This document shows, piece by piece, positions 646 to 18,970 of a DNA stretch of 31,992 nt (its first letter is position 1; each line of letters begins with the position of its first letter). The notes under the pieces are model-generated. The model saw only the letters and a list, made by a program, of their open reading frames with translations. It was not told the DNA's origin and did not search any database. Position numbers and translations under genes: made by a program. This DNA is from Nitrospira sp. (GTDB lineage: Bacteria; Nitrospirota; Thermodesulfovibrionia; Thermodesulfovibrionales; SM23-35). The stretch covers positions 1 to 31,992 of the forward strand of contig VGWZ01000001.1 of the NCBI GenBank assembly GCA_016873595.1. The letters are read 5' to 3'.

Positions 646-671
646 TGAACAACTCTACAAACTTACTCATC
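646..671 (+). promoter_or_regulatory. Candidate ECF promoter copy 1: TGAAC-N17-CATC
   Basis: tgaac(646-650) aactctacaaacttact catc(668-671), then ta-ATG(674). Same motif and spacing as 8234, 17137 and 18945. Confidence 0.65.
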
Positions 672-673
672 TA

Positions 674-1588
674 ATGATTTATATAGAAGAACAATTTAAA
701 GAACTTTTACATCAGTGTTTGGATGGTAAAGAATATGCACTGGAAGAATTTCAGAATACTTTTGGAGAGGATATTTATAATTTTCCCATGAAGGTACATA
801 GACTTGAAAAAGAAATGGCTGCTGAGTTTTACTGTTACTGTTTTGACAAAGGCAGAATTTTTAAGAGATTGAAGACATTTGAAGGAAGGTGTAACCTGAG
901 AACTTATCAGTACTTAGTATTGAGAGACCTTTTTACAGAATGGTTTAGAACTCTCGATTTCACTAAAAATTTTACAGCTTCATTAAATGATCCGATAGAT
1001 CATGATGATGAGACAGAAAAGGGTGTCTTTGTCAAATCAGATGAATCATCCCCGGAAGAAACTTTATTAACTATTCAATCTATGGAAAAATTCGAGACGA
1101 CACTCGGAAAGATTCCGCAGAATGAACGTATATATCTCAAGTTACTGTTGTTTGCAGAGATGGACTTTGAACCTGAAGATATAAGAACAATAGCAAAGAT
1201 ATCAAAAAGAAGCTTCAGGGATGTTTTATATTCTCTGGCTCAACTTGAACAGTCTCTCATACAGAAAAGCGAAAAATATGCACTTAATGAAGAAAATCTT
1301 TATAAAGTTAGCTCTAAAATATTTTTTCACCAAAACGAAATTAGCGGCATTACAGAGTCATCAAATAGAGAAAATAAGGAAATGATACAGAGAATCGAAG
1401 GAAAGATAAAAAAGAGGTTATTACAAAGAAAAAGATACATATCAAAAAAACTTGGTGGTCAAGCAACAGTTTCATACAGAGATATAGCTGGTATTTTAGG
1501 GGTATCTCTTGGAACTATTGCTGCTAACCTCAATAAAGCAAAAGACCTTTTCTTGAAAATGTATCAGGAAGCTGAAAATGAAAAGTAA
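674..1588 (+). CDS. ECF-type (sigma-70 family) RNA polymerase sigma factor with a long insertion in region 4
   Basis: Region-2-like LHQCLDGKEYALEEF...KTFEGRCNLRTYQYLVLRDLFTEWFR. Region 4.1 helix LGKIPQNERIYLKL (aa144-157). Region 4.2 HTH SYRDIAGILGVSLGTIAANLNKAKDLF (aa267-293). Overlaps a zinc-finger anti-sigma gene. No SD upstream. Confidence 0.85.
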   Translation: MIYIEEQFKELLHQCLDGKEYALEEFQNTFGEDIYNFPMKVHRLEKEMAAEFYCYCFDKGRIFKRLKTFEGRCNLRTYQYLVLRDLFTEWFRTLDFTKNFTASLNDPIDHDDETEKGVFVKSDESSPEETLLTIQSMEKFETTLGKIPQNERIYLKLLLFAEMDFEPEDIRTIAKISKRSFRDVLYSLAQLEQSLIQKSEKYALNEENLYKVSSKIFFHQNEISGITESSNRENKEMIQRIEGKIKKRLLQRKRYISKKLGGQATVSYRDIAGILGVSLGTIAANLNKAKDLFLKMYQEAENEK

Positions 1589-2267
1589 CGAAGAAGCATG
1601 TCTTAACAATGAAATCATAGCAGCATATTTAGATAATACACTGTCTCCAAAAGATATGACTGTTGTTGAGGAACATCTCATGTCTTGTGATAAATGTTTA
1701 AGAGAAGCCATTTCTCTAAATGAGATATTATTGAGAATGTCCGAAGGAGAAGCCATTCCTCTCCCTGAAAAGCTTAGAGAAAAAGTAATTTCAACAAATC
1801 GAACTTCAAAGAAAGTAAAATATTTATCTGAATTTGTTATCTCCCTCTCTGAAAAAGCTATATCTTTAATTAAAACCGCTTTTCTTCCAGAAGGTACAGA
1901 ACTCAAAGTATTTGGTAGTCAGTCACCCGCCTTAATTTATCGTGGGAAAGAACTATCAGGGGATGTCCTTAATATTAACCAGAAGATTAATGATATAGAT
2001 ATTAGGATTCAGTTTTATAATACCGAGGGACCAGCCGCCTCTCTAAGAGTCTTATTTCTAAAAGAAAATTTACCTCTCAGCAAAGAGAGGATTACTCTTT
2101 ATAAGAAAGATAGGCTATTGTCCTCAAAGGTAACCTCTAAAGAGGGAAACGTCATATTTCCTGATATAAATTACGGTTATTATCGAATCTCCATACCGGG
2201 TGAAGACATCGAGATGTCCTTTAAAATATTACCGGAAGAAAATAACAAGAGGAAAAATAATGAATAG
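1578..2267 (+). CDS. Zinc-finger (zf-HC2/ZAS) anti-sigma factor, soluble, with a C-terminal Ig/prealbumin-like beta domain
   Basis: N-terminal CLNNEIIAAYLDNTLS...VEEHLMSCDKC (HxxxCxxC). No hydrophobic TM segment. C-terminal ITLYK...VTSKEGNVIFPDINYGYYRISI resembles carboxypeptidase-regulatory-like repeats. Overlaps the sigma stop by 11 nt. Confidence 0.85.
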   Translation: MKSNEEACLNNEIIAAYLDNTLSPKDMTVVEEHLMSCDKCLREAISLNEILLRMSEGEAIPLPEKLREKVISTNRTSKKVKYLSEFVISLSEKAISLIKTAFLPEGTELKVFGSQSPALIYRGKELSGDVLNINQKINDIDIRIQFYNTEGPAASLRVLFLKENLPLSKERITLYKKDRLLSSKVTSKEGNVIFPDINYGYYRISIPGEDIEMSFKILPEENNKRKNNE

Positions 2268-4071
2268 CGACCCAAAATACTTAACCATTTTTCGCCAGGG
2301 GAATATTCATATAGTAGACATGTTTGAACAAAACACCCTTTTCCCTAAAAGGGAGATAACCATAGAAGACAGTTTTATTCAGGATATATGCAGGGATGTT
2401 CAACGTATTACCTTGCTGGCTAACAGACGTTACTTTGACAGCTCTGTCAAACAAGGCGACACATTGGTTTTGGAAGAGCTAAAAAAAGTTGGATCTGTTA
2501 TCTTTTCGCAATTACTCCCTGATGAAGTAAAGACTAATCTGAGAAATTCGAAATCCACCGCTCTCTTTCTAAAACTTGACGAACATCTTATCCACATACC
2601 ATGGGAATTGTGTTTTGACGGAAACGATTTCTTAACAACGAAATTTAGAACAGGCAGGCAGATACTGACTGCGCAAACTTTTCAGAAAAAAGGACAGAGG
2701 CCGCATATTAATCAGGATTCAAAGGTAAAGATGTTGATAATTGTTGATCCTTCCGAAACGCTCAAATATGCTCAAGAAGAAGCAGAGTCACTTTGTTCCA
2801 TCCTTGATAAATCAACTAATATTGACGTTGAGCTTATCGGAGGACAGCAGGCAACTAAAATGAATCTTATTTCTGAGTTAAACGGAAAGGATATTGTTCA
2901 CTTCATAGGCCATTCCTTCTTTGACGTCAGGCATCCAGAAAATAGTGGGTGGGTTTTAAAAAACAGTATTTTAACTCCTTCTGAAATAATTCGCATGGAT
3001 TTACCTCCCTTTATGGTGTTTTCTAATTCATGCCAGGCAACTGCTGCTAAAAATCATCTGATGGGGTATGTGTATGATGAGCAATCTTTTGGTGTAGGTG
3101 GAGGATTTCTCTTATCAGGAGTGCAGAATTTTATAGGACCTTTCTGGATAGTTCATGATGAAGATAGTGTGAGCTTCTCTTCAGATTTCTACAAAGCTTT
3201 TATGGCGGGATCAAGCCTCGGAGAGGCATTGCATATTGCAAAGGAAAATATTATCAGAGAAAAAGGCTGGGACAATCTCCTCTGGGCTTCTTATGTATTA
3301 TACGGTGATCCAACATTGAGAATAAAATCTAATAGGGACAAGGAGAAGGTTGAAGAAAAAATAATTCATAATGATGACTTGGAGTTTAAAACAGTAACTA
3401 CTCCCCAGAGTGATGTCAGCTCATTAAATTATGAATCTTTGGTATATAAAACTAAATCCTCTATCTTCAAACCGATTATAATAAGTTTAGCATTAATCAT
3501 ATTGCTTGGTTTAGGTATTTATATCTTTGCCCCGACTATAATCCATTCTTTTAGCGATTTCATTTCAAATAGGCTGGAAACAAAATGGTATCCCGTCTCT
3601 GGTTCCTGGGGATACAAAGATGGCAAATATACATTAATTACTGAATTCTGGGATGGAACTGCTGTTTCATATTTTGATCAGAAGGAGTTTAGTAATTTTC
3701 AACTCACGATGAATATATATAAAGGCGAAGAGGCATGGCCAGATGCTGCTTTTGGCGTGATAATAAGTTCAAATGTCAAAGGGGATGCATTGATTCTCTA
3801 TTTCAGAGATGGTGAAGCTGGTTGGGTCATTGAAAGAAATGGAGTAAGGGGGGAGATAATAGGAAAAGCATTATCAGATGTTCCAGCGAAAAGTAGACTA
3901 AAGCTTATAGGCGCTAAAGGTTCTTATCAAGCTTACCTGAACGGAATTAAATTGGCAGAGATAGAAAATAACCTCTTTACAAAGGGCAAAATCGGTGTAA
4001 TAATTGAGTCACGCTGGAGAATACCCCCCGGATTTAAAAATATTGAGGTTAAAAAACTGGAGGGTTTATGA
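2260..4071 (+). CDS. CHAT (caspase-like) protease - transmembrane helix - extracytoplasmic DUF1080/ConA-like beta-sandwich
   Basis: Catalytic motifs IVHFIGHS (His 2911-2913) and MVFSNSCQA (Cys 3031-3033). CHAT C-terminal features FIGPFWIVHD and WASYVLYGDP. TM IIISLALIILLGLGIYIFA (~3475-3531). C-domain WYPVSGSW...YQAYLNGIKLAEIENNLFTKGKIGVII. Start moved to ATG 2260 (RBS AGAGGA; overlaps the anti-sigma stop). Confidence 0.88.
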   Translation: MNSDPKYLTIFRQGNIHIVDMFEQNTLFPKREITIEDSFIQDICRDVQRITLLANRRYFDSSVKQGDTLVLEELKKVGSVIFSQLLPDEVKTNLRNSKSTALFLKLDEHLIHIPWELCFDGNDFLTTKFRTGRQILTAQTFQKKGQRPHINQDSKVKMLIIVDPSETLKYAQEEAESLCSILDKSTNIDVELIGGQQATKMNLISELNGKDIVHFIGHSFFDVRHPENSGWVLKNSILTPSEIIRMDLPPFMVFSNSCQATAAKNHLMGYVYDEQSFGVGGGFLLSGVQNFIGPFWIVHDEDSVSFSSDFYKAFMAGSSLGEALHIAKENIIREKGWDNLLWASYVLYGDPTLRIKSNRDKEKVEEKIIHNDDLEFKTVTTPQSDVSSLNYESLVYKTKSSIFKPIIISLALIILLGLGIYIFAPTIIHSFSDFISNRLETKWYPVSGSWGYKDGKYTLITEFWDGTAVSYFDQKEFSNFQLTMNIYKGEEAWPDAAFGVIISSNVKGDALILYFRDGEAGWVIERNGVRGEIIGKALSDVPAKSRLKLIGAKGSYQAYLNGIKLAEIENNLFTKGKIGVIIESRWRIPPGFKNIEVKKLEGL

Positions 4072-4904
4072 GAAGGATTTTAAAAGTAGTATCCCTCATT
4101 TTATTCATGACTTCTCTTTGCCCCTATTATTCGGATGCTTCAACTAAAAACACCATTGCGGTCGTAGATTTTACCAATAATGCAGGCTATAGCAGTCCCT
4201 CTCAGATTGAACGAGTAGCCAGTGATATATTCTCTGTACTTCTGGCTAATACGGGTAAATTCCGGGTTTTGGAGAGAAATAAGGTTGATTCAGTAATAAG
4301 GGAACTACGCTTCAACAAGACAGAATTGGTAGATCCAAAAAAAGCGGTAAAGATGGGAAAGCTTCTCGGAGCTCAATATATTGCAACCGGTTCCATAATG
4401 GAAATGGGTACAGATGTAAAAACCTTTTCAGGTTATGGAGTAACTACAAAGAACATTAATTACACGGTTGCAATCGAGATAAGGATCATTGATGCAGAAA
4501 GGGGAGAGATAATCTATGGAGAAATGACGTCAGATTCAACAACAGTGCGTCAGACACAGAATCTGTCTACAGATCAAGGAGAGGAAATATATAAAAAGCT
4601 GCTTAAGAATGCACTTTCAAAAAGCGTTGATAAACTCATGGATAGTTTTTCCGGACGGTCTCAACGGAAATCCCTGACCAGAGGCAATCAAAAAATTTAC
4701 ATTATGTCTACTCCTGAGGGTGCTGATATAGAGATTAATGGAGCATTTGTTGGGAATACTCCATATGAAGCAACATTATCAGAAGGAGTGCATAAAATAA
4801 AACTGTCCAAGTCCGGCTATTCAACATGGGAAAAGAATGTAAGGGTTTCAGACGGAATGCAGATAAAGGCAACGCTTATAAGTGAAGGGTTTCAGCAAAA
4901 ATGA
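4068..4904 (+). CDS. CsgG/HfaB-family (TolB_N-like fold) exported protein with a C-terminal PEGA domain
   Basis: Signal peptide; TIAVVDFTN, KFRVLERNKVDSVIREL, AVKMGKLLGAQYIATGSI, IRIIDAERGEI. PEGA motif STPEGADIEINGAFVGNTP...HKIKLSKSGY. ATGA overlap with the CHAT gene. Confidence 0.8.
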   Translation: MRRILKVVSLILFMTSLCPYYSDASTKNTIAVVDFTNNAGYSSPSQIERVASDIFSVLLANTGKFRVLERNKVDSVIRELRFNKTELVDPKKAVKMGKLLGAQYIATGSIMEMGTDVKTFSGYGVTTKNINYTVAIEIRIIDAERGEIIYGEMTSDSTTVRQTQNLSTDQGEEIYKKLLKNALSKSVDKLMDSFSGRSQRKSLTRGNQKIYIMSTPEGADIEINGAFVGNTPYEATLSEGVHKIKLSKSGYSTWEKNVRVSDGMQIKATLISEGFQQK

Positions 4905-4941: not shown

Positions 4942-5784
4942 ATGGTTAAGGAATTTATTTTAATTTTTATCTTTGGGTTTATATGTCTTAATGTCGTCCC
5001 GATTTATAAACAGTCTTTAGAAGCAGGTGTGAGGAAAGAAAGAATAATGGTAGTTATTCCTGAAGTTCATTTACGGATGCCTAAAGTCCCTGACCCTGCC
5101 GGAGAAACGGAAATAGTACGTACTCTCATTGAAGCTGGATATAAGCTTGTTGACCAGCAACAGGTTAAAAAAGTCAGGTACAACGATGTATTTGACAAGG
5201 CATGGAAGGGAGATGACGAAGGCGCGCTTAAGATTGCAAGAAAGTATGATGCAGAAATACTGATAGTTGGGCAGGCGTTCAGTGAATTTGCCGGGGTAAC
5301 AAGAGTGCCTTCAATGCGGGGAATGCCAGGCGGCGATCTCATCTCTTGCCGCGCAAGGGTTGAGGCAAAGGCAATAAGGACAGATACAGGGCAGATAATT
5401 GCTACATACGGAGCACATGGATCTGCTGCTGATATAAGTGAAAACATAGCAGGTAAAGGAGCGCTTGCTGATGCAGGTAGACAGGTTGCAGATTACTTCG
5501 TAAAGATGTTTGAAACAGCGTCTCTATCGGTTTCAGGGGCTGGAATAGAAATGATAGTGGAAGGCATAAAGGGATTCTCAGCATTGAATACCCTGAAAAA
5601 GAAATTAACTTCCGTTCAAGGAGTTGATGATGTTGAGGTATTAAATTTTGAAGGAGGTATCGCTACCATAGATGTCTCCTTTAAGGGGAATGCCATGGAA
5701 TTTGCCTCTGCTATGGAAGATAGTGGGATAAAGCTGAAGATAAAAAAACTTGAGGCAACACGAATAAAAGCTGAATACAGGTAA
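4942..5784 (+). CDS. Exported FlgT-middle/CsgG-like fold protein with a C-terminal ferredoxin-like domain
   Basis: N-terminal hydrophobic segment; RIMVVIPE, LIEAGYKLVD, ALKIARKYDAEILIVG, ARVEAKAIRTDTGQIIA. C-terminal IEMIVEGIKGFSALNTLKKKL...VDDVEV. Confidence 0.6.
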   Translation: MVKEFILIFIFGFICLNVVPIYKQSLEAGVRKERIMVVIPEVHLRMPKVPDPAGETEIVRTLIEAGYKLVDQQQVKKVRYNDVFDKAWKGDDEGALKIARKYDAEILIVGQAFSEFAGVTRVPSMRGMPGGDLISCRARVEAKAIRTDTGQIIATYGAHGSAADISENIAGKGALADAGRQVADYFVKMFETASLSVSGAGIEMIVEGIKGFSALNTLKKKLTSVQGVDDVEVLNFEGGIATIDVSFKGNAMEFASAMEDSGIKLKIKKLEATRIKAEYR

Positions 5785-5793
5785 GGGGGAGAT

Positions 5794-6417
5794 ATGTGGT
5801 TATTTAGAACTTTTTTATTTTTTATCGTTCTTTTCTGTTCATTGTCTTTTGTATCAGCACAGCAGAATCTAAGAATAGCAGTGATGAACTTTGAAAATCA
5901 CTCTTCTTATGGTGGTAAAAAATACTCACAAAAAGCTGCTGATTTAATGATGAATGAGCTCACAAAGAGTGGAGTCTTCACTGTTGTTGAAAGAAAAAGG
6001 CTTGATGCATTGTTACAAGAACAGGACTTTCAAAGTTCAGGTAATGTAGATCCTCAGACAGCAGTCAAAATAGGGAAAATGCTTGGTGCTGATATAGTTG
6101 TCCTCGGTACTATTGATAAACTGGGAGTTGGGACTAAAAAAATAAGAGTCGGTGATTCCACAATTACAAGATATAGCGCATTTGCCAATGTCAATATCAG
6201 AGCAGTTAATGTCCAGACAGGTGCAATACTTTTTTCAGATTCAGATGAGGCTTCAGTTGATGCAAAAAGTGCAACTGTCCCTGGTTATGACATGGGTTCA
6301 AATACCCCGTCTGTGGATGGACCGCTCAAGACTACAATTCAAAGGCTGTCTAAGAGGTTTATAGAAACAATGAAAAGTCCTGATAACAGACAAAAAGGGA
6401 AACCGTCAGTCCTGTAA
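5794..6417 (+). CDS. CsgG/HfaB-family exported protein
   Basis: SPI-type signal (VSA-QQ); RIAVMNFEN, SGVFTVVERKRLDALLQEQDF, AVKIGKMLGADIVVLG, IRAVNVQTGAIL. Confidence 0.85.
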   Translation: MWLFRTFLFFIVLFCSLSFVSAQQNLRIAVMNFENHSSYGGKKYSQKAADLMMNELTKSGVFTVVERKRLDALLQEQDFQSSGNVDPQTAVKIGKMLGADIVVLGTIDKLGVGTKKIRVGDSTITRYSAFANVNIRAVNVQTGAILFSDSDEASVDAKSATVPGYDMGSNTPSVDGPLKTTIQRLSKRFIETMKSPDNRQKGKPSVL

Positions 6418-6428: not shown

Positions 6429-7703
6429 ATGCTTTATTGTCCCAAATGCAATTTGACATATGAAGAAGGGAAAAAGTTTTGTAAGGAATGTGGAGGGAAG
6501 CTTGTTGTAAAAGAAGAAGCTGATTCGGTTTCAACCGAAAGTCATGAAAAACCTGAAGTAGCATTTGTTCATGAGACAAAAATCATAGATGAAAAGAAAA
6601 AATACTGTCCTTCATGTGGCATAGAATATACCTCTGATAAAAAGTTTTGTAAAACCTGTGGAGTTGTGCTTTCCAATACACCAAAAAAAGATTCTCAAAC
6701 AGAATCTGTAAAAAATGCAACCACTGCTTTTAAATTTACTCCAACCCCTCCAAAACCTTCATTTGAGACTGTATCTGACATCCCCTCAAGTTCAAAGGTT
6801 AAATCAATACTCCGGAAAAAGAAGAAGCTCCTGAAGAATGGTCAAAAAATGATGACCCTCATAGGTAATCTGGAAAAGCAAAAAGGTCTTATTTCAGAAG
6901 ATGCACTGGCTATCACCATGAGACCTTATCAGATGAAGCTTGAGGAAATAGAAAAGGAGATAAGCGGAATTAATGATTTTTTGAATGAACTTCAGAAAAA
7001 AGTCACTGTTGAGATAGATGGACTCGAAAAAGAAGTTCTCCCGTTTAAAAACCGCCTTTCTGAACTAAAGACTATACGAAAAGCAAAAGGACTTACATCC
7101 AGCGATTTTAACAGGTTTAAAAAAGAGCCAAAACAGGCATCAAAGAGACTCGACAGCAAGATAAAAAAGAGAAAGAAAATAATGCAACTATTACTTCCAT
7201 CTACTACCGGAAAGCTTGAAGGAGCTGGTGCATCTCTCTACATGAAAGTAGCTGCTGGGATTGTTATCCTTGCTGTTTTAGGGGTTAGCGGCTATTTTGG
7301 ATATAAATATTTTAATAAAAAAGATAAAGATGAAATTACATTTCCAGACAAAGGAACTCCACAAGCTTTGCCTGAAGAAGAAATTAGAAAGGTTTTTGAA
7401 ACCATTAAGAAGGCGAATTTATCTGAAGATATAAATCTTTTTATGTCTTGCTATTCACCGTCTTACCCAACTCATGAGGACAAAAAGAACCAAACAGTTA
7501 AAAACTGGCAAGATTATGATTTTGCTGACCTTTCTTTTACTGTAAGAGATCTCATTGTTAATCAAAACACTGCAGAGGTCACCGTTGATTGGCAGATTAA
7601 CGCTCGTTCTGCAAAAACAGGAGAGACACAGACATTTAACATTACAAATAATGTAGTCTTGCAAAAAGAGTCGGGACAGTGGAAAATCACTGCTTTGAAA
7701 TAA
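6429..7703 (+). CDS. Double zinc-ribbon + coiled-coil + single TM + NTF2/SnoaL-like extracytoplasmic domain protein
   Basis: CPKC..FCKECG and CPSC..FCKTCG; Lys/Glu-rich helical middle; TM VAAGIVILAVLGVSGYFGY. C-terminal EEIRKVFETIKKANLSEDINLFMSCYS...NNVVLQKESGQWKITAL. Confidence 0.75.
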   Translation: MLYCPKCNLTYEEGKKFCKECGGKLVVKEEADSVSTESHEKPEVAFVHETKIIDEKKKYCPSCGIEYTSDKKFCKTCGVVLSNTPKKDSQTESVKNATTAFKFTPTPPKPSFETVSDIPSSSKVKSILRKKKKLLKNGQKMMTLIGNLEKQKGLISEDALAITMRPYQMKLEEIEKEISGINDFLNELQKKVTVEIDGLEKEVLPFKNRLSELKTIRKAKGLTSSDFNRFKKEPKQASKRLDSKIKKRKKIMQLLLPSTTGKLEGAGASLYMKVAAGIVILAVLGVSGYFGYKYFNKKDKDEITFPDKGTPQALPEEEIRKVFETIKKANLSEDINLFMSCYSPSYPTHEDKKNQTVKNWQDYDFADLSFTVRDLIVNQNTAEVTVDWQINARSAKTGETQTFNITNNVVLQKESGQWKITALK

Positions 7704-7721: not shown

Positions 7722-8219
7722 ATGAGCGATTTTTTAGATAAGGTTAAAGGTAAAGTTGACGAGGGAATCAGCAAAATAAGCTCAAAGTCGAAAGAAGCAA
7801 TTGAACTTGCGCAATTAAGAAATCAACTCAGGCACCTTGGAAAAGAGAAAGAGGAAAAGATTAACGCATTGGGAAGGTTAGCGTATGATATGCTCCGCAA
7901 AGATGAATACAATGAGCAGAGGCTTAAAGAGCTTTATCTTCATATAAACGAAGTTGATCGTCAGATAGTGAATGTTGAGGAAGAAATAAAAAAGGTTCAG
8001 GCGATGTCAGCATCTGAAGATATAGGTATTGTCGCGCGATGTGAGTGTGGAGCAGGTATTACCGCCAACCAGAAATTTTGTGCGTCTTGTGGAGGGGATG
8101 TGAAAGCAGTTACTATGCAGCCGTCGGCGCCTCAAGAGGTAATGAAGCGTTGTTCAACCTGTGGTGCAGAAATCAAAGAAACAGCAAAATTCTGTGGAAA
8201 ATGCGGAGCAAAACAGTAA
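7722..8219 (+). CDS. Soluble coiled-coil + double zinc-ribbon protein
   Basis: N-terminal FLDKVKGKVDEG...LGRLAYDM helical region; CECG..FCASCG and CSTCG..FCGKCG; RBS GGAGGG. Confidence 0.8.
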   Translation: MSDFLDKVKGKVDEGISKISSKSKEAIELAQLRNQLRHLGKEKEEKINALGRLAYDMLRKDEYNEQRLKELYLHINEVDRQIVNVEEEIKKVQAMSASEDIGIVARCECGAGITANQKFCASCGGDVKAVTMQPSAPQEVMKRCSTCGAEIKETAKFCGKCGAKQ

Positions 8220-8233: not shown

Positions 8234-8259
8234 TGAACGGAAATATAGATTTTGGCATC
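8234..8259 (+). promoter_or_regulatory. Candidate ECF promoter copy 2: TGAAC-N17-CATC
   Basis: tgaac(8234-8238) ggaaatatagattttgg catc(8256-8259), intergenic and upstream of RBS GGAGGT and ATG 8295. Confidence 0.7.
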
Positions 8260-8861: not shown

Positions 8862-8889
8862 CCGGCTTCTTTACAGAGGAGGATATATT

Positions 8890-9570: not shown

Positions 9571-9596
9571 AAAGTAAGAGAGAGGGTAATACAATT

Positions 9597-10632: not shown

Positions 10633-10660
10633 CTGCCACTTATTTATAAGAGGAGGAAAC

Positions 10661-11650
10661 ATGAAAAAATATTTTCTGTGTTTGGTCAGTCTTATTATTT
10701 TCATGTCGCAGTGTCAATTCGGGTTCGCAAGCAACACCAGAGAAAAAGCACCCTCCTTAGAAGTGCTCAGTGGTTCCAGCAAGGAAATTTACCGCCTGAT
10801 CGATTTTAAGGGTAAAGTTATATTCGTCAATTTCTGGGCTACATGGTGCCAGTCATGCCAAGAGGAGATGCCTTTCATTCAAGGTCTTTACAATCGTTTC
10901 AGAAATGACACGCTACTTCAGATTGTTAGCATTATCTATAGAGATGATTATCAGAAAGCTCTTGAATACAGGAATCAACATAATTATGATTATCCTTTTT
11001 TCTTAGATAGCAATAATAAGACAGCGATTTCCTATGGCGTGACAGGCGTGCCAGAGACTTATATTATAGACAAAAAAGGATTTGTGAGGAAGAAAGTAAT
11101 CGGGCCATTTAATTGGAGTTCTAAGGAGTCGATTTCGCTGATATCAGGTTTAGTCAATGAAACTACAGAGGTAACGGTTATGGCGCCCTCGCCTCAGACA
11201 GGCTACAGGGACGATCAACCTTTCCGGGCATGTGGAATTGCATGTGGTTCTTTTATATTCATAATTATAGCCATTTTTATACTGAACATTGCCCTCTTGG
11301 TGTGGGTTGCCAAAGATGCGAAGAATAGGGGAATGGGAAGTCCAGTTGGCTGGATTTTTCTGATATTATTCACCGGTGTAATTGGCCTTATTATTTATTT
11401 GTTCAGCAGACCAAAAGGCGAACTTGTTATTTGTGATGTTTGCAAGAACAAAAAGTTTAGAGTACAAAAAATTTGTCCACATTGTGGAAACTCCTCAAGT
11501 CCAATGGATGTTAAAGCTGATAAATATGATAAGCCAAAAACACAGATTGGTAGTGGTACAGGACCACTTCATAAGTTTTGTACGCAATGTGGTTCAAAAA
11601 ACGAGGCGAATAGTAAATTTTGTATTGATTGTGGTGAAAAGCTTGAATAA
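10661..11650 (+). CDS. TlpA/ResA-like thiol-disulfide oxidoreductase fused to PLDc_N-like TM segments and two zinc ribbons
   Basis: VNFWATWCQSC (Cys 10847 and 10856), YGVTGVPETYIIDKKG; WVAKDAKNRGM...GWIFLILFTGVIGLIIYLFSRPKG; CDVC..CPHC and FCTQC..FCIDC; RBS AGGAGG. Confidence 0.8.
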   Translation: MKKYFLCLVSLIIFMSQCQFGFASNTREKAPSLEVLSGSSKEIYRLIDFKGKVIFVNFWATWCQSCQEEMPFIQGLYNRFRNDTLLQIVSIIYRDDYQKALEYRNQHNYDYPFFLDSNNKTAISYGVTGVPETYIIDKKGFVRKKVIGPFNWSSKESISLISGLVNETTEVTVMAPSPQTGYRDDQPFRACGIACGSFIFIIIAIFILNIALLVWVAKDAKNRGMGSPVGWIFLILFTGVIGLIIYLFSRPKGELVICDVCKNKKFRVQKICPHCGNSSSPMDVKADKYDKPKTQIGSGTGPLHKFCTQCGSKNEANSKFCIDCGEKLE

Positions 11651-11681
11651 AGTTAGACATTCCTTTAAAGGGGGGAATTTT

Positions 11682-12260
11682 ATGAAGAAAAAGAATAGCA
11701 TAGCACTGTTGGTTCTTTCGTCCCTCATCTTTATAACATTATCATCATGCAGCAAAGACCTTTCGAGAAGTGCAGCGGAAAAAAAGCTTAAAACCCTCGA
11801 ACCACAGCTAATAACGCGCCAGATAAAAAGTCAATATGGCCCAGGCATTAGATTATTTGAGAGTCAAATTAAAGATCCGAATACTTTCAGACAATACGAA
11901 GATCTGCTTGATAAATTACAAGCCGGCGGCTGGATAAAATACAAAAGAAAAACAGATTCCGTTCAGTTTTTTTCACAGATGTTGTATGGTCTATGGTATG
12001 ACGTACATTTTACCGATAAATTAAAGCAATTCATTGTTAAGAGAAATCAGTCTGGTGTTGAAGTGTTAGTTGCTAAGAGGGAATTTGATAAAGTTACCGG
12101 TATTGCTAAGCATGATCCTAATACCTGTGAAGTGGAATTCATGTCTAAAGTAACACCAACCAAATTGACATCAGTTTTTCCACTAGAAAAGCACGAAGCA
12201 GAGCCTCAAAAGCACACGCGTGTCTTTAAACTATTTGATGATGGCTGGCGAATGCAATAG
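11682..12260 (+). CDS. Hypothetical lipoprotein
   Basis: RBS GGGGGG before ATG 11682; MKKKN + hydrophobic + TLSSC lipobox; C-terminal FKLFDDGWRM. Confidence 0.7.
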   Translation: MKKKNSIALLVLSSLIFITLSSCSKDLSRSAAEKKLKTLEPQLITRQIKSQYGPGIRLFESQIKDPNTFRQYEDLLDKLQAGGWIKYKRKTDSVQFFSQMLYGLWYDVHFTDKLKQFIVKRNQSGVEVLVAKREFDKVTGIAKHDPNTCEVEFMSKVTPTKLTSVFPLEKHEAEPQKHTRVFKLFDDGWRMQ

Positions 12261-12416
12261 GTTCATAACTTTTTTGTCTATCGATCAGATATTCAGTATA
12301 TATGAACCTAAAGAATGTTGTGATTTAAAAACAATAAGTCAAATTGAAGAACTTGCTGATTAAGTATGATACATTATGAGTGTAGATGTTATGAAAAAAA
12401 CAATGAGGAACAAATC

Positions 12417-12875
12417 ATGGTAAAGGTGACAGGAGACAGCCCCTGTTCTAACTGGAAAATTACAAAAAATCTTAGGTATCCCATCAAAGCTGTTTATACA
12501 GCAATCATTTTTCTTTTGGTTATTCTTCCCCTTGTTGCATGTCAATCAAGTAAGTATAAAGATAAAGGTGATGTTGTTAAAGTAAAATTTATTCGAAATT
12601 TCCATAATGCGATTATAAACAGTGATTACATTACTGCTATCAATTGTACATGTGAAGCTCAGGAAGCTAAAAAAAAGGGAAATTTTGGCATAGGAGAACA
12701 AGAAATCGAATTTATGCGTACCAAGTTCCCATGGAATGATCTTAAATTGCTTCAGGTGACTGAAATAGTTCCCAATTATTATGAATTAAAATTTGAAGGT
12801 AAGTCTGGAATTAAAATGCAAGACCTTGCCATAGATCAGAAAAATGGTAGTTTATGTATTTATCTACAATTGTAA
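12417..12875 (+). CDS. Hypothetical exported protein/lipoprotein (start uncertain)
   Basis: RBS GAGGA before ATG 12417; hydrophobic AVYTAIIFLLVILPLVAC lipobox-like segment; no family recognised. Confidence 0.5.
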   Translation: MVKVTGDSPCSNWKITKNLRYPIKAVYTAIIFLLVILPLVACQSSKYKDKGDVVKVKFIRNFHNAIINSDYITAINCTCEAQEAKKKGNFGIGEQEIEFMRTKFPWNDLKLLQVTEIVPNYYELKFEGKSGIKMQDLAIDQKNGSLCIYLQL

Positions 12876-12928
12876 TATATAGTGACAATAAATCAATATG
12901 CATGTAAGCATAATTAAGGAAAGTAATT

Positions 12929-13936
12929 ATGAAGAAAAAAGAGTTAGTTACACCTAAAATCTCTGAAGAAAACGAAACTGTGAAAATGGTTCTTTCAAAC
13001 AGAATAACTCTTATTTTATTGTTTAGCTTGATGCTGATTTGTATCAATTATACACATGCCATTGACAATAGCATTGTGGCAGAGGTTGGGAAATACAAGA
13101 TAACAACTGAGGAATACTGGAAGACCTATGATAATGTCATGCGCTTTTACAGGGACATTTACAAAGATAAGTTTGATGAGGAGATGGAAAAGAAAATGAA
13201 GCTGAAAGAAAAGGTTCTTGACTCCTTGATAAATGACAAGGTGCTTCTCATAGCTGCTGAAGATGCCGGGATCAGCGTGAGTGATAAAGAAATTCAAAAT
13301 GCAATAACACGAGAACCAGCTTTTATGAAGGAAGGGCGATTCAACGAACAAATTTTTCTAAATAGATTAAAACTGAACAGGATTACTGTTGAGGAATATA
13401 AGAGGTTAAAACGTCAGGAGCTAACTATTTCGAAAATGAAGAACTATATAACTAAAAATACGGCAAATGCTCAATTTAAAGAGGAAGAAATAAGAAAATT
13501 CATTGATAAATATAAGACTAAGGTGAGAATTATTATTAATCCAAATCAAACATACACAATAGAAACTTCTTCGGCTTTTGACAAATCACAAATAGCAAGG
13601 AATCAAATAGAGCTTTTAGGTCAGGCCCTGGATCAATTCAGATTGTACGTTGGGAGATATCCAACAACAGGTGAAGGGTTACAAGCACTCATGAGAAATC
13701 CCGGGATTCGAAAATGGGAGGGCCCATACCTTAAAAAAGAGATTCCAATGGATCCATGGGGAAGGCCATATATTTATGTCAGCCCTGGTAAACATGGGGA
13801 TTACGATTTATTTAGCTTGGGGAAAGATGGTATACCTGGTGGTACGGGTGAGAATGAAGATATCACAAGCTGGGGAGGTAGCACAGGATATTATGACGGA
13901 GAGCAGAAAAGAAGAAAACCATTGTCACCAATGTAA
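12929..13936 (+). CDS. SurA/PpiD N-terminal chaperone domain fused to a type II secretion major pseudopilin (GspG) globular domain
   Basis: Signal-like segment; IVAEVGKYKIT...VLDSLINDKVLLIAAEDAGISVSDKEIQNAITREPAFMKEGRFN (SurA_N). ALDQFRLYVGRYPTTGEGLQAL...GPYLKKEIPMDPWGRPYIYVSPGKHGDYDLFSLGKDGIPGGTGENEDITSW (T2SS-G). No G|FTLIE prepilin motif. Confidence 0.85.
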   Translation: MKKKELVTPKISEENETVKMVLSNRITLILLFSLMLICINYTHAIDNSIVAEVGKYKITTEEYWKTYDNVMRFYRDIYKDKFDEEMEKKMKLKEKVLDSLINDKVLLIAAEDAGISVSDKEIQNAITREPAFMKEGRFNEQIFLNRLKLNRITVEEYKRLKRQELTISKMKNYITKNTANAQFKEEEIRKFIDKYKTKVRIIINPNQTYTIETSSAFDKSQIARNQIELLGQALDQFRLYVGRYPTTGEGLQALMRNPGIRKWEGPYLKKEIPMDPWGRPYIYVSPGKHGDYDLFSLGKDGIPGGTGENEDITSWGGSTGYYDGEQKRRKPLSPM

Positions 13937-13986
13937 TTTATTAATGTGAATTGATTTGAATGCAAAATATTTGAAAGGGGAAGACT

Positions 13987-15447
13987 ATGAAAAAGATGCT
14001 ATTTCTAATAATAATTTTCCTGCTTATTACATCAGGTTGTGGGCTTCGAATACCTGGTACAGGAGGCGATTGTATTAACGTCAAAAAAATTGTTCCTGCT
14101 GAGGTTAACGTCGCAAAATATAAGAAGATTGCAGTTATTGATTTTGATGGTAAGGGCGGAAGGAATATAGCTGAGTGGATGGAGACAGAGCTTCAAAATG
14201 CACAAGTTGACGGTAAGCCTTATTTTGAGATAATAACGAGGTCACAATTGCTGAAATTACTCGGTGAGCAAATGCTTAGTCTTAAAGGATTTGTTGATCC
14301 TAATACTGCAGCACGGATTGGAAAAATATCAGGCACTCAAGCTATTGTTACTGGTACCGTCACTGCCTATCGCCATGATAAAGGTGTATATTATCGACAG
14401 GTAACAAGAGGCAGGGGAAAACAACAATATGTTGAAAACGTTCCCTGCGAGGTTCAATCTGCTTTTGTGCAATTCACAACCTCTTTTATAGACTCCACCA
14501 GTGGCAAGATTTTAGCAAGAACATCAGGTGAAGGTCAGTACATAGGTGATTCATGTGAAGGGATGGATGGATTAGCCGGACTCCTTATGGATTCTATTTT
14601 CAAATCAGTAAAAAAACAGACTGACAATGTGGTTAGAGGTCCTATAGATGTGCCAGAAAGGGTGATTAACAAAGCGTCTTTAATGGCGATTCAGCAATTC
14701 GTTAAAAAAATAGCTCCGCATTACCAGGATGTATGCATAATTCTAAAAAAAGATGATACTGAAGGAATAGACATCAGTTTTAAATCGAAGCCCGAAAATG
14801 AGAAACAGATCGAGAATTATTATGAGATAGGATATAAGTACGCAATAAGAGGACAGTGGGAAGATGCCATAACACAATGGGATAAGGTTCTTTCTATCGA
14901 TCAGAACAGACCTGCTGCAATATATAACATTGGAATCGCAAATGAAATGATGGGCGATTTATTTCTTGCTGAAAAGCTGTTTAAAAGGGTAACTGAAATA
15001 AAGGCTGATGATGTCTTTTTTGATGCCCTTGCAAGGGTGAGAAAATCAATAGAGCAACAGGAAATAATATGTAAACAAACAGGAAAAGGTTGTTACAGAC
15101 CCCCAACTCAAGCAGAGACTAAAACAAATAGAATAATGGCTCCTGCTAACGAAAAAGTTATTGTACCCTCAGAAATAGAAAGAGACTCTGCAGTAATCAA
15201 AGAAACCGTAGTAGCCAGAGCTAAACCTGATAGTAAAGCAAAATCAGTGGGAAAGATAAGTGCTGGCTCAAAAGCTGAAAGACTTGATACCAAAGGTGAC
15301 TGGATAAAAATAAGAGTTTTTAATGGTGAAAAATCAATAGAAGGATGGGTGCATAAATGTTATATAGAGGGTGAGGACATCAAATGTCCTGTCAAGAAAA
15401 TTAAAGAGAAAAAGCAAGAGGGAAAAGTTCCTGTTTCACCAATGTAG
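13987..15447 (+). CDS. Lipoprotein with CsgG-like domain, TPR region and C-terminal bacterial SH3 domain
   Basis: ITSGC lipobox; KKIAVIDF...AARIGKISGTQAIVTG; TPR-like GQWEDAITQWDK...AAIYNIGIANEMMGDLFLAEKLFKR; SH3-like ARAKPDSKAKSVGKI...KGDWIKIR...EGWVHK. Confidence 0.75.
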   Translation: MKKMLFLIIIFLLITSGCGLRIPGTGGDCINVKKIVPAEVNVAKYKKIAVIDFDGKGGRNIAEWMETELQNAQVDGKPYFEIITRSQLLKLLGEQMLSLKGFVDPNTAARIGKISGTQAIVTGTVTAYRHDKGVYYRQVTRGRGKQQYVENVPCEVQSAFVQFTTSFIDSTSGKILARTSGEGQYIGDSCEGMDGLAGLLMDSIFKSVKKQTDNVVRGPIDVPERVINKASLMAIQQFVKKIAPHYQDVCIILKKDDTEGIDISFKSKPENEKQIENYYEIGYKYAIRGQWEDAITQWDKVLSIDQNRPAAIYNIGIANEMMGDLFLAEKLFKRVTEIKADDVFFDALARVRKSIEQQEIICKQTGKGCYRPPTQAETKTNRIMAPANEKVIVPSEIERDSAVIKETVVARAKPDSKAKSVGKISAGSKAERLDTKGDWIKIRVFNGEKSIEGWVHKCYIEGEDIKCPVKKIKEKKQEGKVPVSPM

Positions 15448-15494
15448 AAGTTTATAGATAGAGTGAAAATTCTTATTATTTAGGAGGGAAAAGT

Positions 15495-16289
15495 ATGATT
15501 AGGATTCTGTTTGGAACTATTGCAGTAATTTTTATTCTGGGTTGCGCGGGTGAAGTAAAAGAGCTTCAGATGAGAGATACAAGCATCAATAAAGATGTTG
15601 GTAGTGGCGTGAAGACTGTTATTTTTCCAAATGGAACTGTATTCGGAGGTGCTTCAAAAGAACAGGCAAGCGCTCTTGCTCAAATATTTGTTGACTCTCA
15701 TAACATGGCAATGAAGGAACTCGAAGAGATTAAGGATGTTAGCAAGAAATCACGCGAAGATCTTGAAATAATCAAAAAGTCAACACAGAAGATAGAAGAG
15801 ACAACTCAGAAAAACCTTGAAACAGCTCAGTTGGCACTTAGGATGCTCGAACAGCTTTCTAAAAGACATGGAACAGGTGAAATAACACTATTCTTCCCTG
15901 TTGGATCTAGTGTACTCAATAAGGGTACTCTTGAATATGAAAGACTGGTTAATTTTGTTGATTACCTATCAAGGGAAAGTAAGGGCAGAAAAGTTTTACT
16001 TATCTCAATTGGTAGTGCCTCAGCCTTTGGAGATAAGAAGATTAATCAGAAACTGGCAATAAAACGCTCAGAAGTCCCTGTAGAGATTGTTGACAAATAT
16101 CTTGTGAATGTGCCACATGAGTTTTTCAGAGTTTACAGTACGGGTGATTTTTATAGCCCTAAGAATATTAGCATGAAGGAGCATCAGAGATATCAGCATA
16201 CACGGATAATTGCGTTTTATGAAACAGACCAGATTCCTCCTTTGCCAGAGGAGCCAGCAAAAGATACACCCAGCCCTCTTCAAAAATGA
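15495..16289 (+). CDS. Lipoprotein with coiled coil and OmpA-like (peptidoglycan-binding-type) domain
   Basis: FILGC lipobox; heptad-rich ELEEIKDV...LEQLSK; ITLFFPVGSSVL...ISIGSASAFGDKKINQKLAIKRS resembles OmpA_C (N..LS..RA), divergent. Confidence 0.65.
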   Translation: MIRILFGTIAVIFILGCAGEVKELQMRDTSINKDVGSGVKTVIFPNGTVFGGASKEQASALAQIFVDSHNMAMKELEEIKDVSKKSREDLEIIKKSTQKIEETTQKNLETAQLALRMLEQLSKRHGTGEITLFFPVGSSVLNKGTLEYERLVNFVDYLSRESKGRKVLLISIGSASAFGDKKINQKLAIKRSEVPVEIVDKYLVNVPHEFFRVYSTGDFYSPKNISMKEHQRYQHTRIIAFYETDQIPPLPEEPAKDTPSPLQK

Positions 16290-16307
16290 GTTGTTTTGTA
16301 AAAAAAC

Positions 16308-16344
16308 TGAAAGCCAATCTTACTATTATCAGATTGGCTCTTCA
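16308..16344 (+). terminator. Stem-loop after the OmpA-like gene (probable terminator)
   Basis: tgaa-agccaatct(16312-16320) / agattggct(16331-16339)-c-ttca; 10-nt loop. Confidence 0.45.
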
Positions 16345-16423
16345 TTACTAAATTTTTTGTGGTGATATAGTAGTATTATAAGTAATTGCTTGCGCGATAA
16401 TACTATAACAACGGAGGAGAAAA

Positions 16424-16757
16424 TTGAAAAAAGGTATTATTATAATTGTTAGTGTTGTAGGCATTATTACTCTTTTATTAACCTTTGGTTGTAACACCAT
16501 AGATAAACCATTGCAAGTCTGATTTAAAGATGGCTGCTGAGGAATGTTGCTGGCTATGGGGTAGTGGCGTGTCTATGGCTAAAGATGGGACACTCAGAGT
16601 CATCTCTGTTAAAAAATTGGACAGCAAGTCAGGTAAGGCATTTGGGGAAAATTTCTATCAGATATTATTCGAAGCTGATGCAGAGTATTTTAAAAAAGTC
16701 GGCAAGTTCGATAAAGGGCAAGTTGAAAGAAGACGTGGAAGGCATGCCTTTCCATAG
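16424..16757 (+). pseudogene. Frameshifted lipoprotein gene
   Basis: RBS GGAGG + TTG 16424 gives MKKGIIIIVSVVGIITLLLTFGCNTIDKPLQV* (stop 16520-16522). The +1 frame is open from 16503 to 16757 (NHCKSDLKMAAEECC...VISVKKLDSKSGKAFGENFYQILFEADAEY...). Confidence 0.55.
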
Positions 16758-17136
16758 TGAACGTGTGCGGTAGGTTTTTCAAATCCAATAGATGATGTTG
16801 GAAAGGTCAACGTGAAGTCCCTCTTTTACAGCATTCTGTTTGTGCCCTTTGCACTGGTCTCCTCTAAAAAAATCTCTAAGCGTGCACATTGGATGAAGGA
16901 CCTGTTGACATGTTATAAATCTTTCTGAGTGTAAATTTCATGGGTTAGTGTCAAGAATCTTTCGCAAATTCTTTGGCGACCTGAATCCGGTTATACTTTA
17001 TTTACGCAATTTCATTTAAGGACACTTACAGACCTTACAAAAATATTTCCCTCATTCAAATATTCCTGTGTTGAGAAATTATCTTGAAAATAGCTTATAG
17101 TTTCGACCATTAGATAATTATTTCACTGCCGTACTC

Positions 17137-17162: not shown

Positions 17163-17295
17163 TTATAAAGAAAACAAGTCATTCAACGTAAGGAGGTGAT
17201 GAAGGTTTATTTACCAATAATAGAAAGGGAAGAAAGCATAGAATTGGGTCATCTTATGATTAACTATTTTAGAGCTTCAAAAAGGAGATACCAAA

Positions 17296-17874
17296 ATGAG
17301 AACAAAAATGAAACTTATCTCATTGTTGATATTTGCATCACTTTTTACTTTTGTATCCCATGCTTTTTCAGCAGATTATTGGTCTTATCCACTTAGTCCT
17401 TGGAGCCCTGTCACTCGTGGTTTCGGAATTTGGGTGAGTGGTTGGGGATATCATTTAGGCGAAGATGTTGTAAAACCAGCTTATACAATTGTTAAGAATG
17501 CGCGATGGGGATATGTTAGACACGTTGCTCCCCATACGAAATATGGTTGGGTTGTTGTTATTGAAAGCCCAAGAGAATGGGAGACATCTACTGATCCAAA
17601 AACATGGAAAAATCCTATATGTCATGTATATGGCCATCTTCGATATGATTCATACCTGGCTGCTACAAAAGTCAAATTAAATAAACTTATCGATAGAGGT
17701 TGGATTATTGGACGTTTAGGTACTTCAAGCGAAAACGGTGGATATACTCCCCATTTGCATTTTGGTGCCCGAAAGGGGCGATATACTTCTACTTGGGTTT
17801 ATTGGGGCTATTCAACAAGCTCATCTGTACTTTCTCAGTGGTACAAACCAAGCTCTGTAATTAACAATTATTGA
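17296..17874 (+). CDS. Exported M23-family metallopeptidase (stand-alone catalytic domain)
   Basis: Signal peptide (SHAFSA); HLGED (HxxxD), VYGHL and GGYTPHLHFG (HxH); RBS AAGGAG. Confidence 0.88.
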   Translation: MRTKMKLISLLIFASLFTFVSHAFSADYWSYPLSPWSPVTRGFGIWVSGWGYHLGEDVVKPAYTIVKNARWGYVRHVAPHTKYGWVVVIESPREWETSTDPKTWKNPICHVYGHLRYDSYLAATKVKLNKLIDRGWIIGRLGTSSENGGYTPHLHFGARKGRYTSTWVYWGYSTSSSVLSQWYKPSSVINNY

Positions 17875-17951: not shown

Positions 17952-17979
17952 CTCTCTTAAATCTATTAAAGTAAAATTT

Positions 17980-18846
17980 ATGAAAGGAACATCAGTCATG
18001 ATACATTATCTGAAGGAGAAGGACATTAAGAAAGTTATATTTTGCATTTTTTTAATTAGCTTTTCAGTTTTGTTAATTAAATGGATAATTAGCGATAGGC
18101 ATATTCAAGAATCAGGTCGTCCTAAGTGTGTGTTCAATTCGATTCTGAAAGTTCAAAAGCCCAACGCTCTCCGGAATTCTTTCAATGAAAATCTACTAAA
18201 TTTTTCAGTAAAGGAAGAAAATATACTGTCTTCAGACCTTCAATTATGGATCAAGAAATTTATTGAGGAAAGCCCATATGGAGAAGCTACATTTATTGAA
18301 CTAGGAAAATTACTCTTTTATAACGGTTACAAAGAATTAGGTCAAGAAATGGTTGAAAAGACTTTATGGGAAAATCCTCTTGATATAAGAGCCCTGCAAG
18401 AATTAGGCACTATTTATAAGGATTCGGGCAAATTAGAGAATTTTAGAGGTACTTATCAGGGGATCTTGGAGAGATTTCCTGATAAGTTAGAAACTTATGT
18501 TACCTTAGCTTCTTTTTTATCAGATAATTCAGATTTTAACGAAGCTCGGTCTATACTTGAATTTGGAATAGAAATGAACCCGAATAATACTGAATTTAGA
18601 TACGCTCTGGGGGATTATCTTGAAATTTCGGAGTCTTATTCAGAAGCCGAAGAACAATATAAGTTTGCATTGAAATTAAATGATAATGATCCCGAGGGAT
18701 ATTTCAAACTTGGAGAACTTTACCTTAAAATGGGCAAGAAAGAGGAGGCTGAATCCTTTTTCACTAAAGCGTCCCAACTTTCAGAAGACTTTGCAAGGGT
18801 AATTCAAGAATTCAAAGAGAGCTTCAGTAAAGATTATCCCATTTAA
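17980..18846 (+). CDS. Tetratricopeptide-repeat protein with N-terminal membrane anchor
   Basis: TM VIFCIFLISFSVLLIKWII; TPR-like units (ALQELGTIYKDSG, FRYALGDYLE...AEEQYKFALKLNDNDPEGYFKLGELYLKMGKKEEAESFF). Confidence 0.8.
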   Translation: MKGTSVMIHYLKEKDIKKVIFCIFLISFSVLLIKWIISDRHIQESGRPKCVFNSILKVQKPNALRNSFNENLLNFSVKEENILSSDLQLWIKKFIEESPYGEATFIELGKLLFYNGYKELGQEMVEKTLWENPLDIRALQELGTIYKDSGKLENFRGTYQGILERFPDKLETYVTLASFLSDNSDFNEARSILEFGIEMNPNNTEFRYALGDYLEISESYSEAEEQYKFALKLNDNDPEGYFKLGELYLKMGKKEEAESFFTKASQLSEDFARVIQEFKESFSKDYPI

Positions 18847-18944
18847 AGATATTTGTAGCTTAAAGAGCAGCAGAATCTACTATATATATCGTAAGTCGCA
18901 GTAGACTCTCCCAAGTAAAGAATTAGCAATAATCATTTTTTCGC

Positions 18945-18970
18945 TGAACAATCCTTAACTTTTTTTCATC
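18945..18970 (+). promoter_or_regulatory. Candidate ECF promoter copy 4: TGAAC-N17-CATC
   Basis: tgaac(18945-18949) aatccttaacttttttt catc(18967-18970), upstream of the strong RBS at 19023-19036. Confidence 0.7.

Follow-up and report, generated by a model that had tools for sequence, protein, structure and literature searches.

Four candidate ECF-type promoters and their predicted cognate sigma factor in a 20-kb envelope island of a Nitrospirota genome

Four + strand copies of the bipartite motif TGAAC-N17-CATC lie in a 20-kb island at the start of contig VGWZ01000001.1 of Nitrospira sp. (assembly GCA_016873595.1), of which positions 1 to 31,992 were analysed (hereafter, the window). Judging from sequence comparison, these copies are very probably promoters of the extracytoplasmic function (ECF) type that are read by the sigma factor encoded in the island itself, which would make the island self-regulated. 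In each promoter, TGAAC would be the -35 element and CATC, with (T/A)(A/T)AT after it, the -10 element, separated by 17 nt, and RNA polymerase carrying the island sigma factor (gene at 674-1588) would read all four sites. The 20-kb island would then represent a horizontally acquired, self-regulated unit.

Motif copies and candidate promoters

A pattern scan of the whole window located the exact motif at five positions. The four copies on the + strand are the candidate promoters P1 to P4, and the copy on the - strand is listed with them.

646-671, + strand: P1, TGAAC-N17-CATC, immediately before the sigma gene; found by the scan, with equivalents before homologous sigma genes
8234-8259, + strand: P2, internal promoter candidate; found by the scan, with a conserved position in the homologous loci L007, L009 and L016
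17137-17162, + strand: P3, upstream of an M23 peptidase/TPR gene pair; the top genome position with both foreign-trained matrices
18945-18970, + strand: P4, upstream of a Tyr-rich small protein/lipoprotein pair; found by the scan, with a counterpart in contig G061:C53
12240-12265, - strand: fifth exact copy, antisense, inside or at the end of a + strand open reading frame (ORF), without a downstream - strand gene

The first-pass annotation of this DNA had reported four copies, all on the + strand; each of those four is present, and the - strand copy (12265-12240) makes that count incomplete. This fifth copy is probably a chance match. It is absent from the full list of positions scoring above the threshold of 8 bits with a weight matrix trained on foreign sites (described below), and it is not among the 30 best core-matrix positions shown. 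The four + strand copies sit within approximately 2 kb of island intergenic DNA, and each points at a downstream gene, as the annotation had described. The CATC of P1 ends 2 nt before the ATG at 674, with no Shine-Dalgarno (SD) sequence. P2 lies 15 nt after the stop codon at 8219 of a 165-aa zinc-ribbon gene and 35 nt before the ATG at 8295; P3 lies 133 nt before the ATG at 17296; and P4 lies 71 nt before the ATG at 19042 and 152 nt before a better, SD-led ATG at 19123.

In 100 dinucleotide-preserving shuffles of the window, the motif occurred 0.23 times on average and 3 times at most, and none of the shuffles reached the 5 copies observed; the earlier rough figure of 0.2 chance copies agrees with this. 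Together, the shuffles and genome-wide counts indicate about 0.2-0.3 chance copies per window, and an estimate from base composition gives approximately 0.008 chance copies for the 2 kb of island intergenic DNA. The spacers are unrelated, as had been claimed; neither a longer repeat nor a mobile element was found around the sites, and no Rfam matches were obtained. The T-rich 3' ends ascribed to the spacers are seen at P2, P3 and P4, and not at P1.

Conservation among homologous loci

Contigs with homologous sigma genes (sigma identity 34-82%) were compared; they come from metagenome-assembled genomes (MAGs) labelled Nitrospirota, Candidatus Scalindua, Scalinduaceae, Anammoxibacter and Thermodesulfobacteriota, and from metagenomes. 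Directly before the sigma gene, the sequence T[G/A][A/G]AC-N17-NNTC followed by (T/A)(A/T)AT is found in 14 of the 15 distinct loci whose upstream DNA could be read. An Anammoxibacter locus (L005/L018) is the exception; there, TGAAC-N17-TATT lies approximately 95 nt upstream. In an alignment of 13 sigma-upstream regions (A3), nearly invariant columns are concentrated in the two blocks of the motif, and the fully invariant bases are T..ACA and TC. The -35 element varies among loci as TAAAC, TGGAC and CGAAC, and the -10 element varies as CTTC, TCTC and CCTC, with CGTC in L020. Every sigma-upstream site has a 17-nt spacer, and two internal sites have spacers of 16 or 18 nt. The distant member L041 carries CGAAC-N17-CATC before the sigma gene and CGAAC-N16-CATC after the CHAT gene. 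At 34-50% sigma protein identity the surrounding DNA is not conserved while the motif is, and the loci concerned come from MAGs that carry the labels of different phyla; the conservation upstream of homologous sigma genes on which the first-pass reading had been made to depend is thus present.

CGTC and TGTC are canonical -10 cores of ECF promoters. The sites described here show the AAC core in the -35 element and a TC-containing -10 element at a spacing of 16-17 nt, as expected of this promoter type, with CATC and not CGTC as the -10 element in the window. A promoter before the sigma factor's own operon, conserved among orthologues (here in the 14 of 15 loci given above), also corresponds to the general principle of autoregulated ECF sigma promoters (PMC7826278).

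Similarly, two of the internal sites have counterparts elsewhere. In each of the four loci with this gene order (the window, L007/L022, L009 and L016), a site corresponding to P2 occupies the same place between genes: it directly follows the stop codon of the 165-aa zinc-ribbon gene, and another zinc-ribbon gene comes next; the counterparts lie at 8651 in L007, 10017 in L009 and 7777 in L016. In the alignment of these sites (A2), TGAAC and the TC..AATA block are invariant and the flanks diverge. The counterpart of P4, TGAAC-N18-TGTC, lies in a Nitrospirota MAG contig (G061:C53), where it precedes a Tyr-rich secreted protein of 120 aa and a lipoprotein 48% identical to that of the window. In addition, the Scalindua-type loci and L003 carry a second site at the end of the TPR-CHAT gene.

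The two motif halves are neither palindromic nor repeated, and all sites are oriented with their downstream genes at promoter-like distances, which speaks against their being operators for a DNA-binding regulator. Functionless chance similarity would be conceivable in that only 9 bases are specified and chance copies are common at the genome scale; however, hardly any copy is expected by chance in the 2 kb of intergenic DNA, and the positions are conserved at 35-50% protein identity. On orientation, placement and conservation, operators and chance similarity were both rejected, and we regard them as extremely unlikely.

Distribution in the genome

The genome assembly (2.01 Mb in 305 contigs, 40% guanine plus cytosine, 95% complete) was scanned on both strands. 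The exact pattern has 26 matches, compared with 14-28 matches when the spacer is set at lengths of 14-20 nt; by itself, the 9-base pattern does not rise above genome background, and an exact-pattern scan of five other sigma-carrying genomes gave background numbers only. This pattern is too weak to define a regulon alone, and, given the lack of enrichment in the genomes, specificity rests on the flanking bases and the context. The window makes up 1.6% of the genome DNA yet holds 5 of the 26 exact matches, an approximately 15-fold excess over the rest. The signal is one of local clustering and conservation, not of genome-wide enrichment, and the concern that the motif might be equally frequent throughout the genome is answered by this concentration in the window over a background level outside the island.

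A weight matrix was trained on 17 sites from other genomes, with no window site included. With the full matrix, the four window sites rank 1 (P3), 3 (P2), 4 (P1) and 7 (P4) among approximately 4 million genome positions, and with a matrix of the core columns three of them rank 1 (P3), 2 (P1) and 4 (P4) genome-wide. High-scoring matches outside the island (C258:269, C71:3707 and C128:4143) were inspected and rejected, being situated in coding or antisense DNA that no gene follows. No convincing site outside the island was found by the matrix scan of this 95%-complete assembly, and as far as the assembly shows the regulon appears to be confined to the island. The earlier proposal that the motif ties island genes into one regulon gains support from the positional conservation of P2, the counterpart of P4 and the ranks of the four sites with the foreign-trained matrix.

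It is worth considering whether a host sigma factor, either the housekeeping one or another alternative one, reads the motifs. The sequences tTGAAC and TCTAAT loosely resemble TTGACA and TATAAT, and it is sequence comparison that ties the motif to the island sigma factor. However, a reading as sigma-70 hexamers would give a spacer of 19 nt. No conservation is seen at the position preceding TGAAC, and the bases that do not vary, namely the C of AAC together with TC, are hallmarks of ECF promoters. A housekeeping sigma-70 promoter of the form TTGACA-N16-18-TATAAT with conserved T-12, A-11 and T-7 was rejected on this hexamer spacing and on the ECF-type conserved bases. Moreover, the motif accompanies the sigma gene in Nitrospirota, Scalindua and Thermodesulfobacteriota MAGs, and stays at background elsewhere in this genome, in which the search described below found no other ECF-like sigma factor. 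Recognition by a host sigma factor is thus considered very unlikely, and reading by the island sigma factor is preferred.

The island sigma factor and its family

674-1588, + strand: sigma gene, 304 aa (TIGR02937, Pfam)
1578-2267, + strand: zf-HC2 (ZAS-type) anti-sigma factor (Pfam zf-HC2, E 5e-08), sharing 11 nt with the end of the sigma gene

The product of 674-1588 is predicted to be a divergent ECF-type sigma factor. Over residues 22-291 it matches TIGR02937 (sigma70-ECF, NCBIfam; cut-off 42.9 bits) with a score of 46.9 bits, and the same profile matches all 13 members of the sigma family alignment; Pfam gives only a weak Sigma70_r4_2 match. In its layout, a sigma-2-like part at the N-terminus is followed by a helical hairpin insertion and then by the region 4.2 helix-turn-helix (HTH) at the C-terminus. 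In the AlphaFold2 model (mean predicted local distance difference test score 66.8, confident only in the C-terminal half), long helices at 181-226 and 232-257 are followed by the HTH at 268-302. A profile search of PDB sequences gave weak region-4 alignments to RpoE, SigW, SigH and SigR chains, and it showed no significant similarity to solved sigma complexes beyond generic region 4. The protein has the sigma-2 plus sigma-4 composition without sigma-3 that defines ECF factors by profile, with an atypical length of 304 aa and a long insertion.

A TIGR02937 search of the 95%-complete genome found no other ECF-like sigma factor. Three strong matches to this profile were rejected as ECF factors, as they lie in open frames of approximately 500 aa, which is not ECF size.

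A word-indexed search returned 13 relatives of the sigma factor, and an exhaustive profile search returned 442 at E <= 0.001, with 140 cluster representatives at E <= 1e-10, mostly of about 300 aa. The family is larger than was first apparent and is essentially metagenomic. In every locus with downstream sequence, a zf-HC2 anti-sigma gene follows the sigma gene, and the order sigma, anti-sigma, CHAT is preserved. The zf-HC2 protein of the window is accordingly placed, and it is predicted to be the cognate, co-transcribed anti-sigma factor. The main text of the ECF reclassification paper mentions no CHAT- or CsgG-linked group. One Anammoxibacter MAG (G065) holds an intact copy and, in addition, stop-interrupted sigma-family matches at C21:12951-13712 and C73:107-990, which look like pseudogenised paralogues.

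P1 and the start codon of the sigma gene

The 2-nt gap between CATC and ATG in the window is shared by the 82%-identical relative L010 and apparently by L040, which is truncated in the -35 region. Nine further distinct loci have a gap of 5-7 nt between the -10 tetramer and the ATG. An SD is missing from the loci with either gap, in contrast to the strong SD of all other island genes. The anammox/Scalindua-type loci have a leader of 25-30 nt, an SD and a CTG or TTG start. Across L003-L041, starts without an SD were observed 2, 5, 6 or 7 nt after the tetramer. This distribution suggests that the sigma family switched between leaderless and SD-led translation. A leaderless mRNA would suit the 5-7 nt class if the holoenzyme, compared with RpoE, starts slightly nearer to the -10 element; it does not suit the 2-nt class. 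Leaderless expression across the sigma family is proposed tentatively, with the balance leaning somewhat against it.

ECF start sites lie several nt past the -10 tetramer. Because the 2-nt class does not fit a leaderless mRNA, P1 may express the genes downstream of the sigma gene rather than the sigma gene itself in this genome, although we consider it rather unlikely that the sigma ATG is excluded from the P1 transcript in the window. A wider form of this idea accepts the four promoters as real and denies autoregulation of the sigma factor through P1, with transcription starting downstream of ATG 674. The sigma factor would then boost the anti-sigma factor, CHAT and the downstream genes, leading to negative feedback or uncoupled expression, and basal sigma would be supplied by an upstream housekeeping promoter. 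The gap of 2 nt without an SD (also in L010 and apparently L040) and the established ECF geometry, which places the start several nt beyond the -10 element, are in line with such an arrangement. It is less easily reconciled with the nine loci that have a 5-7 nt gap and likewise lack an SD, where the tight coupling fits a leaderless mRNA starting at the ATG; the N-terminus of the window sigma factor is merely shorter than the others and still aligns, and no good upstream housekeeping promoter stands out in a consensus scan. We judge a P1 without sigma autoregulation to be a rather unlikely explanation. With respect to the first-pass remark that ECF genes are typically flanked by their own promoter, the motif does lie directly before the gene, and simple positive autoregulation is not assured at a gap of 2 nt.

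Insertion site of the island

The window segments 3-283 (DUF2207) and 20546 onward (lemA) align contiguously to the same-genus loci L034 and L035; the gap between DUF2207 and lemA is approximately 220 nt in these loci versus approximately 20.3 kb in the window. The empty site in close relatives identifies the block as a genomic island. The insertion contains the 22 island genes as well as the four promoters, all of them on one strand, and the core genes from 20549 are lemA, a glycine-zipper protein gene, xerC, hslVU, rlpA and alaS. The sigma factor was not found in 59 of the 60 relatives searched, the one remaining match being marginal (E 8.8e-5). It was not found in three same-genus genomes (76-86% complete). 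It seems, from this distribution, that the motif travels with the cluster. The earlier idea that the 20-kb block is a functional unit fits the empty lemA-DUF2207 site in the same-genus genomes.

The block spans 284-20548, and DUF2207 and lemA are adjacent in three same-genus genomes and in two other genera. The first 27 residues of the window DUF2207 ORF have no match in relatives, and the insertion may have replaced the 5' end of this ORF.

Proposed transcription units

The genes that follow the sigma and anti-sigma genes are arranged as follows.

2200-4071, + strand: CHAT protease (Pfam), transcription unit 1
4068-4904, + strand: CsgG+PEGA protein (Pfam), transcription unit 1
4942-5784, + strand: 280-aa protein with no assigned family, transcription unit 1
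5794-6417, + strand: CsgG protein (Pfam), transcription unit 1
6429-7703 and 7722-8219, + strand: zinc-ribbon proteins (Pfam), transcription unit 1
8295-16289, + strand: transcription unit 2 (Pfam)
17296-17874, + strand: secreted M23 peptidase (Pfam, signal-peptide-like N-terminus), transcription unit 3
17980-18846, + strand: TPR protein (Pfam), transcription unit 3
19042-20421, + strand: transcription unit 4, a Tyr/Gly/Arg-rich small protein and then a lipoprotein

The gene order of unit 1, through 8219, also occurs in L007/L022, L009 and L016. Unit 2 begins with a membrane zinc-ribbon protein, a DUF3108-like protein, an LppM-like/Zn-ribbon protein, YidD and an AhpC/TlpA-like thioredoxin with Zn-ribbons, and continues with two unknowns, a SurA_N+T2SSG fusion, a CsgG+TPR+SH3 protein and a 264-aa unknown. 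For its membrane zinc-ribbon gene, the ATG at 8295 (MFCPECG..., SD GGAGGTG) is better than the mechanical TTG start at 8283. In unit 4, the ATG at 19123 (SD GGAGG, signal-like MMKKLL...) is a likelier start of the Tyr-rich protein than the GTG at 19033 or the ATG at 19042, and the lipoprotein ORF (19528-20421) has the lipobox LTAC.

The 850 nt between units 2 and 3 (16290-17136) contain no ORF of at least 80 aa; a small lipoprotein-like ORF with an SD lies at 16424-16522, and a frame of approximately 77 aa lies at about 16530-16760. This stretch may hold the remnants of degraded genes. A short ORF starting from GGAGGTG-ATG at 17200 overlaps the M23 leader in another frame (17200-17295), and it is probably not translated because its SD-to-ATG spacing is only approximately 2 nt. 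Terminator and sigma-70 consensus scans gave counts not above those of shuffles, so that the ends of the transcription units are not marked by these scans.

Proposed regulation of the island

Based on the results presented above, a circuit may be proposed in which the sigma factor would be held by the co-transcribed zf-HC2 anti-sigma factor. The adjacent membrane CHAT protease, once activated, would release it, by analogy with DdvA/DdvS and Csx29/Csx30/CASP-sigma (see below). Free sigma factor would then drive four + strand transcription units, all of which encode envelope or secreted proteins. P1 would give the sigma factor, the anti-sigma factor, CHAT, two CsgG-like proteins and two Zn-ribbon proteins; P2 would give membrane Zn-ribbon proteins, YidD, the TlpA-like protein, the SurA_N-GspG fusion and the CsgG-TPR-SH3 protein; P3 would give the M23 peptidase and the TPR protein; and P4 would give the Tyr-rich protein and the lipoprotein.

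Several observations weigh against reading of the four sites by the island sigma factor. The exact pattern is enriched neither genome-wide nor in other sigma-carrying genomes. The N-terminal (sigma-2) half of the AlphaFold2 model has low confidence, and a Foldseek search of the PDB with this model gave no match at E <= 0.001. P1 ends 2 nt before the sigma ATG, and the usual ECF geometry would place the transcription start inside codons 2-4. P3 has no counterpart, as no homologous locus was available for it and a search of four sigma-carrying genomes for the M23 protein found nothing; the earlier claim that the motif unites all the listed genes has comparative support at P1, P2 and P4 and none for the M23 peptidase. 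For RNA, no runs are listed for the window; metatranscriptome contigs matching L025, a Scalindua-type locus, are too short, fragmentary and low in depth to place start sites. One such contig spans the promoter, which may reflect read-through or DNA carry-over.

As a separate observation, L025:1400-7400, which holds the Scalindua-type sigma/CHAT cluster, is covered at 99-100% identity by short marine/seawater metatranscriptome contigs. RNA libraries thus contain this cluster, although at low depth and with DNA carry-over as a possible source.

Discussion

The analysis gives a concrete regulon prediction for an uncharacterised ECF-like family with approximately 140 cluster representatives (E <= 1e-10), nearly all of them metagenomic, whose sigma factors always adjoin a zf-HC2 anti-sigma factor and a CHAT protease. 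It also defines four transcription units of a 20-kb envelope island. A cognate sigma/promoter pair could be used to switch on the whole island in a heterologous host and thereby to probe the CsgG-like, zinc-ribbon and Tyr-rich proteins. In addition, the coupling between the start codon and the -10 element across the sigma family poses a small mechanistic question.

In kind, the system appears to be an ordinary autoregulated ECF regulon belonging to an undescribed, divergent ECF-like family. A bolder view, which we put forward as a speculation that is possible but not probable, is that of a portable, self-contained module consisting of an orthogonal ECF-like sigma factor with a split region 4, its anti-sigma factor, CHAT and cognate promoters. 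This module would have moved between phyla (Nitrospirota, Planctomycetota and Thermodesulfobacteriota) and gained lineage-specific envelope cargo under new promoter copies; its sigma mRNA would be leaderless, with the first codon fixed a few nt from the -10 element, and this arrangement would have been replaced in anammox lineages by an SD-led CTG/TTG start. The cross-phylum, island-borne and self-contained character, together with the unusual promoter-to-start geometry, is the moderately interesting part.

Comparison with known systems

Promoters of the Bacillus subtilis SigW/SigX/SigM type have the form TGAAAC-N16/17-CGTx, and those of Escherichia coli RpoE have the form GGAACTT-N16-TCAAA. 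The sites described here resemble them in the AAC-core -35 element, the non-conserved spacer of 16-17 nt and the short C/T-C-containing -10 element, as well as in the position of a promoter before the sigma/anti-sigma operon and in the small, envelope-related regulon. They differ in that the -10 element is CATC(T/A)(A/T)AT instead of CGTC/CGTA, that the sigma factor is of approximately 300 aa with a helical insertion of approximately 100 aa before the 4.2 HTH, and that in most members the start codon follows 2-7 nt after the -10 tetramer without an SD.

The CASP-sigma/Csx30/Csx29 (TPR-CHAT) system of type III-E CRISPR (clustered regularly interspaced short palindromic repeats) is similar in that a CHAT-family protease adjoins the sigma factor and its inhibitor, and three matches to the CASP-sigma motif lie within the locus of that sigma factor (PMC10028731). 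The system is likewise present in Scalindua and in bacteria of the Desulfonema type, the first of which also carries the present family. Unlike that system, in which activation is RNA-guided, the island has no CRISPR component.

DdvS of Myxococcus xanthus offers a further parallel, as one ECF sigma factor serves four promoters over one island, its own included, which were mapped by 5' rapid amplification of cDNA ends and reporters (PMC6061681, PMC11506125); the promoters of the present island are predicted from sequence. Control in both cases involves an anti-sigma domain that binds zinc, together with a protease module of the CHAT type. In DdvA, however, the anti-sigma domain, a transmembrane helix and TPR-CHAT form one protein, whereas here the zf-HC2 and CHAT parts are encoded by two genes. 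The cargo differs as well: the Ddv island carries CBASS (cyclic oligonucleotide-based antiphage signalling system)/CRISPR defence genes, and the island described here carries CsgG-like, Zn-ribbon, M23 and chaperone-like envelope proteins.

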